DNA of 64,000 bases from Eledone cirrhosa. Its lineage: Eukaryota. The position numbers and the translations under genes were made by a program. Under the pieces are notes generated by a model, which worked only from the letters and a program-made list of their open reading frames with translations, had not been told where the DNA came from and did not search any database. Location: NCBI GenBank assembly GCA_964016885.1, contig OZ024754.1, positions 4,836,001 through 4,900,000 of the forward strand, given 5' to 3'. Below, piece by piece: positions 54,576 through 62,920 of the stretch (positions are counted from its first letter, which is position 1; each line of letters opens with the position of its first letter).

Positions 54576-54617
<42 letters not shown>

Positions 54618-54728
54618 TAAAAGGAATTCCAACTTTGTCTGATTTACTAGTTGTATTTACAATCCTTTAAAATTATAATGGTATTAGAATGAAATAGTAT
54701 GGTAGAATATTAAATGTTAAGTGTTAAT

Positions 54729-54767
54729 TGAACAAGTACTTTCATGCTTTCGCAATCTTCAGGTTCA
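54729..54767 (-). ncRNA. Type I minimal hammerhead ribozyme (inverted copy)
   Basis: Reverse complement of 54852-54890. Confidence 0.8.
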
Positions 54768-54851
54768 TATTCTGTGGTGACAATCAAGTTTGCAATTTTC
54801 AACTGTGAAAATTGCAAACTTGACTGTCACCACAGAATATGAACCTGAATA

Positions 54852-54890
54852 TGAACCTGAAGATTGCGAAAGCATGAAAGTACTTGTTCA
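54852..54890 (+). ncRNA. Type I minimal hammerhead ribozyme
   Basis: UGAAC-CUGAAGA-UUGC GAAA GCAU-GAAA-GUAC-UU^GUUCA; palindrome AAGUACUU. Confidence 0.8.
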
Positions 54891-55036
54891 ATTAACACTT
54901 AACATTTAATATTCTACCATACTATTTCATTCTAATACCATTATAATTTTAAAGGATTGTAAATACAACTAGTAAATCAGACAAAGTTGGAATTCCTTTT
55001 ATTAATATAATCTTCTATCCACAATCATACACACCC

Positions 55037-55100
<64 letters not shown>

Positions 55101-57429: not shown

Positions 57430-57655
57430 CACATTTTATCTCCAACCTGTGATGGCTGGCCATTGGTGTAAGAGGGAGTCCGTTGCGGTTGCGCTTAGGT
57501 TACCTTCGTACCGTGCTGTGGGCTCATCCGGGATCATGGACAGCAGGGTGTCAAGATGTTTCTTGAAAACATCCACGTCCACACCATGCAGATTTCTCAA
57601 ATTTTTTAACAGCTTGTTAAAGAGTTGGGGGCCTGTATCTTGGTTAAATGTCATT
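57430..57655 (-). mobile_element. CR1/L2-group LINE ORF2 C-terminal fragment
   Basis: GPQLFNKLLKNLRNLHGVDVDVFKKHLDTLLSMIPDEP..ATDSLLHQ. Confidence 0.65.
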
Positions 57656-57700
57656 TACCATAGCTTCAAGTCACCCCACGTATCTTATTTCTCATTCTTT

Positions 57701-58602: not shown

Positions 58603-58838
58603 GTGACTATCGTGGATCCACAACGACGCTTGTGTAGCTCACAGGTCTGGAGGCTGAGCCCCAGGGAAACACTAATAGGTAGACAGTCATTGGCATATGA
58701 TATAAATAAGATGTAAAGTATTCAATGACCATTGTAGATCCACAACGGTGCTTGTGTAGCTCACAGATCTTGAGGCCGAGTTCCAGGGAAGTACTGATGC
58801 TTAAACAGTCATGACTTATGATATAAAGAAAGGTGTAC
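58603..58838. repeat. Diverged ~123-bp tandem duplication
   Basis: gatccacaacg..gcttgtgtagctcacag..ccagggaa..acagtcat..tatgatataaa occurs twice. Confidence 0.75.
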
Positions 58839-59317: not shown

Positions 59318-59365
<48 letters not shown>

Positions 59366-59401
59366 TATAAGATCAAAAGATGGTTAAAAGAGTACCAAGT
59401 A

Positions 59402-59467
59402 TTTTATTATGCGCATTTCAAAAACAAATATCATCATGGATGATATCTACGTTCTCATCAGATAAAA
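59402..59467 (-). ncRNA. Type I hammerhead ribozyme at the PLE 3' terminus, in sense orientation
   Basis: UUUUAU-CUGAUGA-GAACGUAGAUAUCAUC CAU GAUGAUAUUUGUUUUU-GAAA-UGCGCA-UA^AUAAAA. Confidence 0.85.
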
Positions 59468-60440
59468 TAGGGAGACATGATATGAAGCTTAAAAAAACAC
59501 TTGTGAGCAGTGAAGTTTTAAATCAACATATGAAAAATAAACTAAGATGGATATATGAGATTGGGAAAAATGAGGGGGAGGGGGGGGGGGTAGGAAAGAA
59601 AAATAAAGGATGGTGGGAGAGGAGTATAAGAAGGAAGAATGAGAGAGGAGGAGAAATGAGTGAGAGAGAGAGAGAGAAATAGCCTTTACAACTGAGAAAA
59701 CATTGTCTCACAGAGAGAAATTAAAAAACCATTGGAAGATAATAGATAATTTAAAAAGATTTTGAAATTAAAAGTTAATGAGGTTTATGCATGAAGAAAA
59801 AGGAATTAAGAATAGTATTAAATTAAGGTTTGTATATTGAGAGGTTTAATAATATGTGCGAAAAAAAGAATTTATTAATATGTATTATTAAAATAAAAAT
59901 ATTAATGATATTAAGGATATAATGTGAAAGAAGGAGAAGAATAAATGAATTATGAACTTAGAGGAATTAGTTAGGGTTTAAGTTTGTTTTTATGTATTGT
60001 AATATGTAAACGTAAATAGTAGGTTTAAAACGAGCACGGAAGGAGAGAAGAAAAAAGAAAGTTTAAGGAAGAAAAAATATCTAACGCAAAAAGTATATAT
60101 GTTTACGAAAATTTTCTAATGGTAGTATTATATATAGTTTTAATGGCCAATAATATGAGGGAAAATGGAAAAATGGATAATGCTGTAGTGAGTAATAATA
60201 TGAATTGAGAAGTAGTTGGGAAGTAAAAGTTACAGATTAGAGATTAGAAATTAAAAAAGAAAAAAGGAAGAAAGGAAAAATGATAAAAAGAAGAAAGATA
60301 GGGGATCACAAAGACATAGAATGAGTAAATTGTATTATATAATATATAATACTGAAATAAGGTAGAAAGATGGGTATATTTGTAAAAGATATAAAAGCAT
60401 TTGAGAAAAGAAGATTTTAAACTAATTAGGTATTGAGATA

Positions 60441-61729
60441 TTAGCTGTATACTTTATGGAATGTTCTATGGGATTTATGCAAGCAGAGCGAAAATAAATC
60501 CGTGCGTCTATTTATTATAGAATTGAAATTAGATATAATGGTAAATTTCTCGGCTAGGCAGAGATTACATGTTCTGGATAGGGAAGAATTCAGGTAAGGA
60601 AAGGCGGTGCAAACCTTCCTCCAAGAGATGTTATAGTTACTATTTTTGTCTTTTAAGGACGATATGAGTTCCGAGAGTGCCGTGTTAGTTCTTTTAAGTT
60701 GGTATTTAAAAGACGATTTGTGATTATAAAATCTTGCTTTAAAGGAAGTGGAAGTGGAACCGGAATAGGTAAAAGAATTAGTATCAGTTATAACCTTACA
60801 TTCATACACTAAGTTTTTATCAAGACATTGGTTATTAAGAGGACATTTAGTTCTAACAGGGCAATTACAATTACGATTAGAGAAATGAACAGAGTTATTA
60901 ACAAGTGACCTAATATTATTTATAGAAGGAATTGGATTGGAGAAGTTATTTACGATAGGAACTATAGTTTCCTGATTTAGATTGGTATAATGAACATTCA
61001 ACGAAGTTACGTTTGACGTCGTATTTAAATTTACAGTTAACAATGACGTCGGGATTACTGTTGCTATTATTATGACGCTCAGTGTTGGAAGGATGTAATT
61101 TATTATTTAATATTTTATTGTTGTGTTTAGAGATAATGTTATAGATGTTGGAAGTGGTGGAATAAGAAAATTTGATTGTATGTTTGTTAAAGATTTTACT
61201 ATAGATATGTGAGGGAGGGAAGCATTTATCTAAGGCCCTATGAATAGTTTAGGAATATTATTATTAATAGATAAAGAAAAAGGAGTATTATACCAAATTA
61301 TATTTTTGTATCTAGGTCTTTTATTTAAGTTATTAGAATGTTCATAATTAACTATTTTACTATAAGACCTTCGATGATTGGTTTCTTTACTGTATTTAAT
61401 TTTATCAGGATAACCGGCTTTGGAAAGCGCATTATTATAGTAATTGGCATTAGCGTCGAAGATATCTTTATTAGAGAATAGATTTGAGATTCTTTTTTCA
61501 ATATTACTGACTATAACATTTTTAACGTTAGTGGGGTGGTTAGATTTAAAATTAACATAATTTAGATTCTCATTGTTTTTATGGTAAGGGTAATATAGGC
61601 CAGTGTCAAGATTAAGGGATATATCCAAGAAGTTAGCTAGTTTGACGTTGTTATCAAATTCAATTTTAAGGTTATGGTGCTTAAATAGATCACGTATATT
61701 GTTCTTAATAATATTAAGGTTAACTAAGT

Positions 61730-61730
<1 letters not shown>
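60441..61730 (-). pseudogene. PLE reverse transcriptase C-terminus plus GIY-YIG endonuclease, frameshifted
   Basis: LANFLDISLNLDTGLYYPYHK..YVNFKSNHP..IIWYNTPFS; frameshift near 61232 to DKCFPPSHIYSKIFNKHTIKFSYS; second shift to CNCPVRTKCPLNNQCLDKNLVYECKV..YSGST..FKARFYNH..CNLCLAEK..NRRTDLFSLCLH. Confidence 0.9.
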
Positions 61731-61798
<68 letters not shown>

Positions 61799-62369
61799 TT
61801 GGCAGGGTCGTTAGAATGTGGGATAGAATAATTTGCGGTATTCATTTCGGCTTTCTGCTCTGTGGGTTCAAGTCACGCCGAGTTTAGCTTTGCCTTTCAT
61901 CCTTATGGGGTCGATAAAATAATGTACCAGTAATCGACTTTCCCCTCCCTTCCCAAAAATTGCTGACCTTGTGCCTAAAGTAGAAACAATTATTATTAAT
62001 CTTCTTACGATTTTGAGTGTATATCTGAGAGATGAGTTGTAGAAAATTTCCACTGACATCTGCAGAAACTCCTCTGTTAAATAAACAAAGTAAACGTTAG
62101 CCAAACTTTTGGGATGTTTATCTTATTTCTTAGCCATACACTATGATTATAAACTCCTGTTTCCTCATCAGAACCTAACCATCTTGTACTAGTTAAACCA
62201 CAATTTAATACGGTCAATGTTAAATACGACAAGACGCAGATGTCATTGATATATATAAGCTGAGGGGGGCGGAAAGATATAAAGTCGAAGGTTAAATAGT
62301 TTGCCGACTACGTACTATTACTATTGCGCGTGTCCTTTGTAAAAAAACACCATTAATTCTTGGTATTAC

Positions 62370-62738
62370 ATAACTGGTTCAATCCACTTAGTTTTATAAC
62401 TGGTTCAATCCAGTTAGTTTTATAACTAGTTTAATCCAGTTGAGTTTATAACTGGTTCAATCCAGTTAGGTTTATAACTGGTTCAATCCAGTTAGTTTTA
62501 TAACTGGTTCAATCCAGTTAGGTTTATAACTGGTTCAATCCAGTTAGTTTTATAACTGGTTCAATCTAGTTAAGTTTATAATTGGTTCAATCTTGTTAAG
62601 TTTATAATTGGTTCAATCTAGTTAAGTTTATAATTGGTTCAATCCAGTTAAGTTTATAACTGGTTCAATCCAGTTAGGTTTATAATTGGTTCAATCTAGT
62701 TAAGTTTATAACTGGTTCAATCCAGTTAGTTTTATAAT
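62370..62738. repeat. 26-bp minisatellite with internal inverted repeat, about 14 copies
   Basis: Unit tataactggttcaatccagttagttt; TAACTGG/CCAGTTA. Confidence 0.9.
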
Positions 62739-62920
62739 TGTTTCTACTTTTGACACAAGGACAGCAATTATCCCAGTGTATTACTGGTGCTTTATTTTAT
62801 CGACCCCGTAAGGATGAAAGGCAAAGTTAACCTCGGCGGGATTTGAACTCAGAATGTAAAGGGCCACAACTCTATGCTGCAAAGCATGGCGTTCGACCTT
62901 CTACCGATACTGCCAATCCA
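62735..62920 (-). mobile_element. tRNA-derived SINE family A
   Basis: Consensus match; a diverged copy lies at 61795-61992 (+). Confidence 0.85.

Follow-up and report, generated by a model that had tools for sequence, protein, structure and literature searches.

A truncated Hydra-clade Penelope-like element and hairpin-tailed fold-back insertions in a 64-kb stretch of the Eledone cirrhosa genome

The coding element at 59365–61732

The stretch of Eledone cirrhosa DNA analyzed in this study, hereafter the window, comprises 64,000 nucleotides (nt) of contig OZ024754.1 (assembly GCA_964016885.1, positions 4,836,001 to 4,900,000). On its minus strand, positions 59365–61732 are occupied by a dead, 5'-truncated copy of a Penelope-like element (PLE) with the motifs of the Hydra clade, present as a single arm that stops at the standard 3' end. 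Its open reading frame (ORF) is broken into three pieces. The first (61230–61732) encodes motifs 6–7 and the thumb of the reverse transcriptase (RT), begins right after the missing YRDD motif and ends in a frameshift and a stop codon. The second (61090–61233), in a shifted frame, covers the thumb-to-linker region, and the third (60441–60881) encodes a CxCx5C linker (60843–60869) and a GIY-YIG endonuclease without CCHH and with CxxC and CxH. The coding region is followed by a long, AT- and pyrimidine-rich 3' untranslated region (UTR) of about 1 kb (59470–60440), which ends in a type I hammerhead ribozyme (HHR) motif (59400–59469) 38 nt before the next (TA)n. The (TA)n target lies on both sides, at the 3' end (59320–59364) and at the 5' truncation point (61733–61797).

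The three coding pieces were collinear with the full-length relative P0086 by tblastn, in which residues 355–501, 503–550 and 552–688 matched positions 61715–61236, 61233–61090 and 60881–60477, respectively. They run from RT motifs 6–7 through the thumb and linker to the GIY-YIG domain, and their order places the endonuclease C-terminal to the RT. The initial annotation of this DNA had recognized a PLE with RT and GIY-YIG remnants, a sense-strand HHR at the 3' terminus and (TA)n on both sides, all of which was borne out, the RT part being the C-terminal end only. It had also described the element as autonomous, which the copy at 59365–61732 is not. The 5' end of the copy adjoins (TA)n about ten codons past the expected place of the catalytic YRDD, no YxDD was found in any frame from 61236 to 61900, and two frameshifts, one near 61230 and the other in the low-complexity linker, interrupt the coding region. 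Autonomy would apply only to the parent family of this copy. A Pfam scan of the two coding pieces returned no families, and no RT or GIY-YIG Pfam family was found in the 109 ORFs of the window. Pfam misses Hydra proteins: no relevant family was returned for the two window pieces and six relatives. The endonuclease piece retrieved 4163 relatives at E ≤ 0.001, and sequence comparison with the PDB gave only weak matches to bacterial RTs (E 0.2).

The Hydra clade is defined by a C-terminal endonuclease, a CxCX5C linker, the lack of CCHH, CxxC and CxH motifs, an HHR and (TA)n targets in the part of PMC8557442 considered here. All six features were found in the element. Its linker reads CNCPVRTKC, its CxxC and CxH motifs read CNLC-LAE...IN...CLH, and its GIY-YIG core contains no cysteine pair. 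Among 151 fetched relatives, the best of which were about 37–41% identical to the element, CxxCxxEK was found in 133 and CxCx4-8CP in 129, and none carried a CCHH-like motif or a cysteine pair in the core. The published Hydra alignment rows fit the remnant motif by motif by eye, whereas those of Penelope, Poseidon, Nematis and Neptune do not. Thus, on its motifs the element belongs to Hydra rather than to the clades named for comparison in the initial annotation (Penelope/Poseidon, Neptune and Nematis). Penelope/Poseidon elements possess CCHH and no zinc-finger-like linker, the opposite of what was found here; Neptune and Nematis require a CX2-5CxxC linker together with CCHH, neither of which occurs in the element; and Naiad and Chlamys carry an N-terminal endonuclease, while that of the element is C-terminal. 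A quick tree of 48 rows, which held no non-Hydra reference and no RT core from the element, has no bearing on the clade. Hydra elements are described as under 3 kb long with a single ORF (PMC8557442, in part), and for the window copy the length is to be read in the light of its truncation and its unusually long 3' UTR.

A scan of 27 of 64 parts of a metagenome collection provided further Hydra-type loci, of which 77 were fetched (best 80 of 189 confirmed). Hydra elements are also characterized by RWK and DKT motifs and a divergent RT4. RW[KR] was found in 31 and DK[TS] in 34 of the 37 loci with long ORFs; the corresponding region is missing from the window copy. A sense HHR lay 3' of the endonuclease in 30 of the 52 loci with at least 150 nt of flank, and an antisense one in a single locus. 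Their 3' UTRs were mostly 50–520 nt long, unlike that of the window element. No relatives were found in viral contigs among 69 candidates. In the partial-tandem loci L024, L028, L058, L065, L018, L046 and L061, the 3' pseudo-long-terminal-repeat (pseudo-LTR) continues through two hairpins, described below, into the next ORF. The element is a new family of the known Hydra clade, members of which have already been published from octopus.

The HHR of the element lies on its sense strand, with its core at 59461, predicted cleavage after H17 at 59408 (AUA triplet), stems I/II/III of 8, 15 and 4 pairs, and a palindromic stem III. It was not called by Rfam, which gave no matches at the gathering score, and it was absent from the best 150 of 249 rows at E ≤ 5 (19800–59700). 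These rows were nearly all microsatellite-driven miRNA matches, with one hammerhead, an HH9 match at 46189–46260 (34.9 bits, below gathering), the sole Rfam hammerhead island among them and without a hairpin tail. The free fold of the element HHR was no stabler than that of shuffled sequences (z −0.65). With an intact core, an AUA triplet and a weak free fold, it is a candidate for an active ribozyme.

Family A, the twin bulged hairpin and the positions of element ends

The 3' end of the coding element recurs in a fold-back insertion of what we call family A. Its left arm (26480–26649, minus strand) has the standard 3' end joined to (TA)n and extends about 14 nt beyond the other arm in the 5' direction. 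Its right arm (26650–26805, plus strand) contains an HHR with its core at 26705 and continues on the same strand into an 87-nt tail (26806–26892), which carries a bulged hairpin (26810–26836, with an A-U outer pair) and then enters (TA)n. The element end was identical to the left arm at 140 of 166 positions (84%) and to the right arm at 127 of 153 (83%), and it is the same site as the end of the untailed arm. The homology to 26480–26648 reported by the initial annotation therefore stood, although the fold-back proved longer, continuing to about 26892, with a right arm that ends in a tail rather than in (TA)n. The annotation was also right that HHR stem II differs between the two with pairing kept. 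Fifteen of 16 positions are paired in both copies and seven of 16 differ; all seven differences are one-sided wobble transitions with no two-sided compensatory changes, so that the comparison is modest evidence. As it is the element end that matches this fold-back, the ORF link is established for family A only.

The hairpin of the family A tail is also present in the metagenome loci, where it sits twice between the ribozyme and the ORF start. The pseudo-LTR there consists of the HHR, an AT-rich spacer, hairpin 1, about 40–55 nt, hairpin 2 and the ATG. Each hairpin, of roughly 25 nt, is built on a GCUC/GAGC base of four pairs, above which follow a 2-nt bulge in the 3' strand and the inner stem. 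Both lie in the 5' UTR, with hairpin 2 mostly 16–46 nt upstream of the ORF start, and GAGCAC occurred within 220 nt upstream of the ORF in 41 of 53 loci. The inner stem covaries. In counts anchored on sequence only, the first inner pair was Watson-Crick at all 66 distinct sites from 42 loci (C-G 44, U-A 21, G-C 1), compared with a shuffle mean of 36 and none of 2000 shuffles reaching 66. The second and third inner pairs were Watson-Crick in 43 of 61 and 28 of 39 sites, the fourth was not above shuffles, and slid partners paired at about 15–25%. On the tree, the inner pair of hairpin 1 switched at least seven times among 31 labelled rows. The outer pair was U-A in L042 and L049 and A-U in most window copies. 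Five of seven folded examples gave the bulged form as the minimum-energy structure or a close variant with z below −2, and the other two had z of −1.5 and −1.7. In a MAFFT alignment of 38 hairpins the stem positions fell out of register.

A descriptor of the hairpin matched the 5' region of 29 of 47 loci, with no matches in ORF interiors and none in antisense. The paired descriptor gave 15 matches in the window, compared with 0.06 in 100 null sequences, a contrast weakened by the fact that any outer pair was allowed, a setting chosen after the A-U variant had been seen in the window. Thirteen of the 15 window hairpins belong to families A, B, E, F and M, where they lie on the same strand as, and downstream of, the HHR or HHR-like 3' half wherever the arm retains one. 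By eye, the same hairpin is also present at the consensus ends of the published Hydra-2_Amil, Hydra-1_Ajap and Hydra-2_Ajap.

Element ends fall close to these hairpins. In the metagenome loci, 14 of 26 matches that paired a 5' pseudo-LTR with a further copy stopped within −1 to +7 nt of a hairpin, for which chance gives about 8%; the ends were at hairpin 1 or hairpin 2, mostly followed by TA-rich DNA. In the window, nine of the 16 hairpins examined had a cleanly aligned inverted partner, and all nine partners stopped 3–5 nt before the hairpin and entered (TA)n. In each of these nine fold-backs the other arm carried the hairpin as a tail, so that one arm was tailed and one untailed. In family M, which comprises nine loci, seven of nine fold-backs paired an arm end at reference position 272 with one at 353. 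The arm that reached further 5' was the tailed one in three of these, the untailed one in two and neither in two; in family A it was the untailed one. TAT or ATA preceded the hairpin in 49 of 64 sites. The predicted cut site of the ribozyme lies within most arms, which points to a template that was probably intact at this position. As judged from sequence, the hairpins likely set two RT start sites.

Instead of being bound as RNA by the RT, the hairpins might act as DNA, namely as an endonuclease recognition site or a promoter element, or as translation or packaging signals, and the 3' ends might adjoin them for that reason. The endonuclease of Penelope from Drosophila virilis required tail sequence for recognition (as cited in the part of PMC11167929 considered), the hairpins are located in the 5' UTR, hairpin 2 shortly before the ORF start, and the counts of G-U and A-C pairs (6 and 2, respectively) leave the strand unfixed. 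However, the covariation of the hairpin pairs and the constant 2-nt bulge of the 3' side fit a structure formed by a single strand. In addition, the untailed insertions stop short of hairpin 1 and abut (TA)n, a target without hairpin DNA, so that the landmark must have been on the template. We consider a DNA-level or translational role unlikely.

The near-identity of fold-back arms (156 of 156 positions in family A) and centers with an overlap of only 0–1 nt or with small palindromes are compatible with a snap-back origin, either through a cDNA that folds back and serves as its own template or through later palindromic duplication of a short insertion. In family A and in two copies of family M, however, each arm holds sequence that the other lacks, a tail in one and a longer 5' reach in the other. 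This excludes a single self-copy unless the center was later deleted unevenly, and we regard snap-back as quite improbable.

Other island families and repeats of the window

Family M is abundant in the window. Its longest fold-back lies at 19848–20440, with one arm tailed and one not and an HHR with a U3:A8 core at 20335–20341 (plus strand); its arms (20110–20350) are 98.7% identical over 234 nt, which indicates a young insertion. Another M fold-back, at 4379–4602, includes a hairpin at 4527, and further ones are at 2071–2212, 8465–8651, 8759–8962, 16626–16764, 20447–20663, 40959–41151 and 50896–51092. This family escaped the HHR descriptor owing to its U3:A8 core variant and to the retention of only the HHR 3' half in most arms.

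Family B includes a fold-back at 23005–23290 with two HHRs and one arm tailed with a hairpin (23056, minus strand), and another at 51915–52107 with a decayed HHR arm and a short arm with tail and hairpin (52069). Family E is represented by fold-backs at 44950–45236, with a hairpin tail (45022, minus strand) and no complete HHR core recognized, and at 16303–16563. The base stem reads AUUC/GAAU in one family E hairpin (16488–16522) and ACUC/GAGU in the other (44990–45026), a change on both sides. Family F comprises an HHR island with the standard end at 45471–45690 (minus strand) and tailed relatives near 35299, 10710 and 23860–23990. The family C fold-back (35715–36128) has HHR flanks that resemble family A and a tail hairpin that is decayed by eye, with relatives at 4084 (minus strand) and 54345 (plus strand); it is centered on a perfect 54-nt palindrome (35959–36012). 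Family D, a fold-back at 54610–55040, contains two HHRs; it is extended by 30 nt on one side, where the hairpin is absent. A further (TA)n-flanked fold-back at 15975–16210 has a one-sided extension with, by eye, a long-loop version of the hairpin.

The HHR descriptor gave 14 matches in the window compared with a mean of 0.17 in 30 local shuffles. Five of these fell in the hairpin families A and B, three in family C and its relatives, whose hairpins are decayed by eye, and six, at 26351, 52176, 54857, 54762, 46242 and 22765, were without the hairpin. Further minimal HHR cores at 8023, 55739 and 57704 were found by core search only, and we take them to resemble the minimal HHRs of other PLE clades. 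The HHR islands without the Hydra hairpin (8023, 22765, 55739, 57704, 26351, 52176 and 54762/54857) are probably derived from such other clades. A family HHR pattern gave no matches in metagenome contigs; its seven window matches had served to build it and are not independent.

The initial annotation had regarded the other HHR islands as heavily 5'-truncated insertions of other PLE families. This is likely for many of them: hairpin and tail support a Penelope-like origin for several island families, and the link of families B, E, F and M to a Hydra coding region appears to be indirect, through these two features. No coding remnant was found at any island by tblastn with the 151 relatives as queries, the element giving the only matches in the window, and the ORF link holds for the 26480 family only.

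Several island families, especially M, might be non-autonomous short elements that were never linked to an ORF and use the hairpin to borrow the Hydra protein, much as SINEs (short interspersed nuclear elements) borrow proteins of LINEs (long interspersed nuclear elements). Most M arms begin inside stem II at nearly one place, 15 of 18 in the narrow zone of reference positions 203–247 and one at 266, the longest M arm extends only about 170 nt 5' of the HHR, there are no coding remnants near the islands, and non-autonomous PLE derivatives have been published (PMC8557442 and 10.64898/2026.07.22.740005, each in part). Family A, however, resembles these islands yet is tied to an ORF, and the stretch at the end of the long M copy is pyrimidine-rich and resembles the 3' UTR of the element. 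Such a status is possible though doubtful, and it would keep the same insertion mechanism.

The islands are short and non-coding with inverted ends, which could also suggest retrozymes of the tandem or LTR type, satellites or DNA transposons similar to miniature inverted-repeat transposable elements (MITEs), in each case without relation to the coding element. A 77-nt tandem of 2.3 copies beside an HHR-like core on the minus strand (32578–32787) is a possible decayed retrozyme and, at 32578–32752, the only, weak, candidate for an HHR in each head-to-tail tandem unit, the arrangement of non-LTR retrozymes. However, no tandem array covers families A–F or M in the window. LTR retrozymes carry type III HHRs in long terminal repeats; the complete island motifs are type I and outside LTRs, and the arms are inverted. 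Moreover, the island ends are unequal, with a one-sided tail, and carry a hairpin present in ORF-bearing Hydra loci. For the hairpin-bearing families an origin as retrozymes, satellites or MITEs is largely refuted, and for the islands as a whole it is extremely unlikely.

The window is AT-rich and contains many microsatellites of the types (TA)n, (GA)n and (GTG)n, together with one frequent SINE-like repeat of about 200 nt (1550–1930, 5230–5460, 13300–13550, 33500–34050 and about ten more), some copies of which form inverted pairs (33518–34050). Minisatellites lie at 5769–6316, 30176–32315, 38867–39450, 58604–58827 and 62370–62744, with periods of 74, 34, 116, 122 and 26 nt; the 74-nt unit appears to be tRNA-derived. 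The minus-strand translation of 57450–57660, for which no Pfam match was found, resembles the C-terminal part of a reverse transcriptase protein from a LINE.

A proposed insertion model and its relation to known systems

In our preferred reading, held with good but not full confidence, the element is a 5'-truncated, frameshifted Hydra PLE in (TA)n, the 26480 fold-back has the same 3' end, and the remaining islands with a hairpin likely represent very short insertions from related families, which probably arose when an RT-endonuclease nicked (TA)n and copied from a few bases upstream of either hairpin. The RNA of an intact family member would extend into the next pseudo-LTR and contain the HHR, the spacer, hairpin 1, hairpin 2 and the ATG. 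The protein, perhaps as a dimer, would bind the hairpins and nick both (TA)n strands. Each DNA 3' end would then anneal to the short TAT-like sequence immediately 5' of a hairpin and prime cDNA synthesis, hairpin 1 giving the standard end and hairpin 2 the tailed end. Both cDNAs would usually stop early and join head to head into a fold-back, while a single long cDNA would give the 2.4-kb copy. The binding, priming and joining steps are what we infer from the observed positions and structure.

Several observations weigh against this reading. Twelve of the 26 locus matches end away from the hairpins, mostly short cross-family or internal matches; the self-matches of L013, L017 and L040 miss the hairpin by the rule used, and some locus matches are between related (sister) families and hence not independent. 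In the window, seven of the 16 hairpins examined are without a clean partner, two of which fit by eye, two of the nine M fold-backs break the 272/353 pairing, and the hairpin descriptor matches at 41286 and 44823 (2 of 15) have no upstream HHR remnant. No island family of the window besides A is tied to an ORF. In addition, scanning for the hairpin with a sequence-only weight matrix gave no excess over its null of local shuffles, the G-U and A-C counts make the strand evidence for an RNA-level hairpin weak, and no clear hairpin was found by eye in the published consensus of Hydra-1_Obim. Finally, the start site of a Poseidon element is not homologous to the cut DNA in the part of PMC11167929 considered, in contrast to the TA pairing proposed here.

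A more general form of the model, which we regard as having about an even chance of being correct, is that paired bulged RNA hairpins serve throughout the clade as a ruler for a telomerase-related RT. Each hairpin would bind one protein subunit and position a short TA stretch for alignment within the active site, in the way that telomerase RNA positions its template, and one ribonucleoprotein would prime both (TA)n strands from two starts, giving head-to-head insertions tailed on one side. If true, the ruler would explain the PLE tail and the inverted pseudo-LTRs together and provide a sequence-structure marker to classify ORF-less fold-backs. How PLE RTs choose internal start sites, and why a tail at one end occurs with inverted copies, has been only partly answered, for one Poseidon element. 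A covarying motif of about 25 nt at a fixed 3–5 nt from both kinds of 3' end makes the question open to a direct test with purified protein. Annotators can also use the motif to recognize ORF-less fold-backs, about 15 of which lie in this 64-kb window and which could be filed as MITEs or unknown repeats.

The twin hairpin was not found in the literature searched; subscription journals, Repbase and Dfam notes and figures were outside the search, and the supplements of PMC11167929 and 10.64898/2026.07.22.740005 could bear on the point. The words "hairpin" and "stem-loop" have no occurrences in the main text and supplement of PMC8557442, and neither the twin hairpin nor the end-position rule was found in the part of that source considered. 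An annotation of Octopus vulgaris lists 31 recently active Penelope-like families, with Hydra and ribozymes unmentioned in the portion of its main text considered (PMC13282606).

Similar to the Hydra clade as described in the relevant passages of PMC8557442, the window insertions combine a C-terminal GIY-YIG domain, CxCX5C, CxxC and CxH motifs, no CCHH, a sense HHR near the 3' end, (TA)n targets and 5' truncation with inverted 5'-truncated copies and a one-sided tail. Hydra-1_Obim of Octopus bimaculoides also has a sense HHR and a preference for (TA)n (supplement of PMC8557442, in part), but its HHR and protein differ by eye from those of the window element, which represents a separate family. 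Lone HHRs have already been read as truncated PLEs in other animals (PMC4209133), and a related inference is in print (PMC8557442; related 10.64898/2026.07.22.740005), each as far as the passages considered go. Similar to the dispersed hammerheads of PMC4209133, those of the window occur singly or as opposite-strand pairs, with a U3-A8 core variant and a palindromic helix III; that work described Schistosoma and others, its main text has no occurrences of "mollus" or "Hydra", and its passages considered here mention no tail landmark. The window islands also share with non-LTR retrozymes a type I HHR, a non-coding nature and, probably, a derivation from PLE pseudo-LTRs. Different from those head-to-tail tandem units, however, the islands are single or head to head (10.64898/2026.07.22.740005, in part).

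The closest biochemical parallel is Poseidon of Anolis carolinensis, whose protein in vitro cuts and extends both strands, with two internal RNA starts bounding the tail, an uncleaved RNA as template, a predicted dimer and AT-rich targets (PMC11167929, in part). The window insertions resemble it in two likely start sites that bound the tail, the probable cutting and extension of both strands, AT-rich targets and an apparently uncleaved RNA template. In the Anolis element, the starts are located in an AC-rich stem-loop of the ORF and share no homology with the target (PMC11167929, in part). In contrast, the Hydra ends each fall 5' of their own copy of a repeated 5' UTR hairpin, at a TA-like stretch, with both ends paired in one insertion. 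Thus, while the element and the reading of lone hammerheads as truncated PLEs belong to what is already known, what may matter here is the hairpin and the rule for the positions of the ends.

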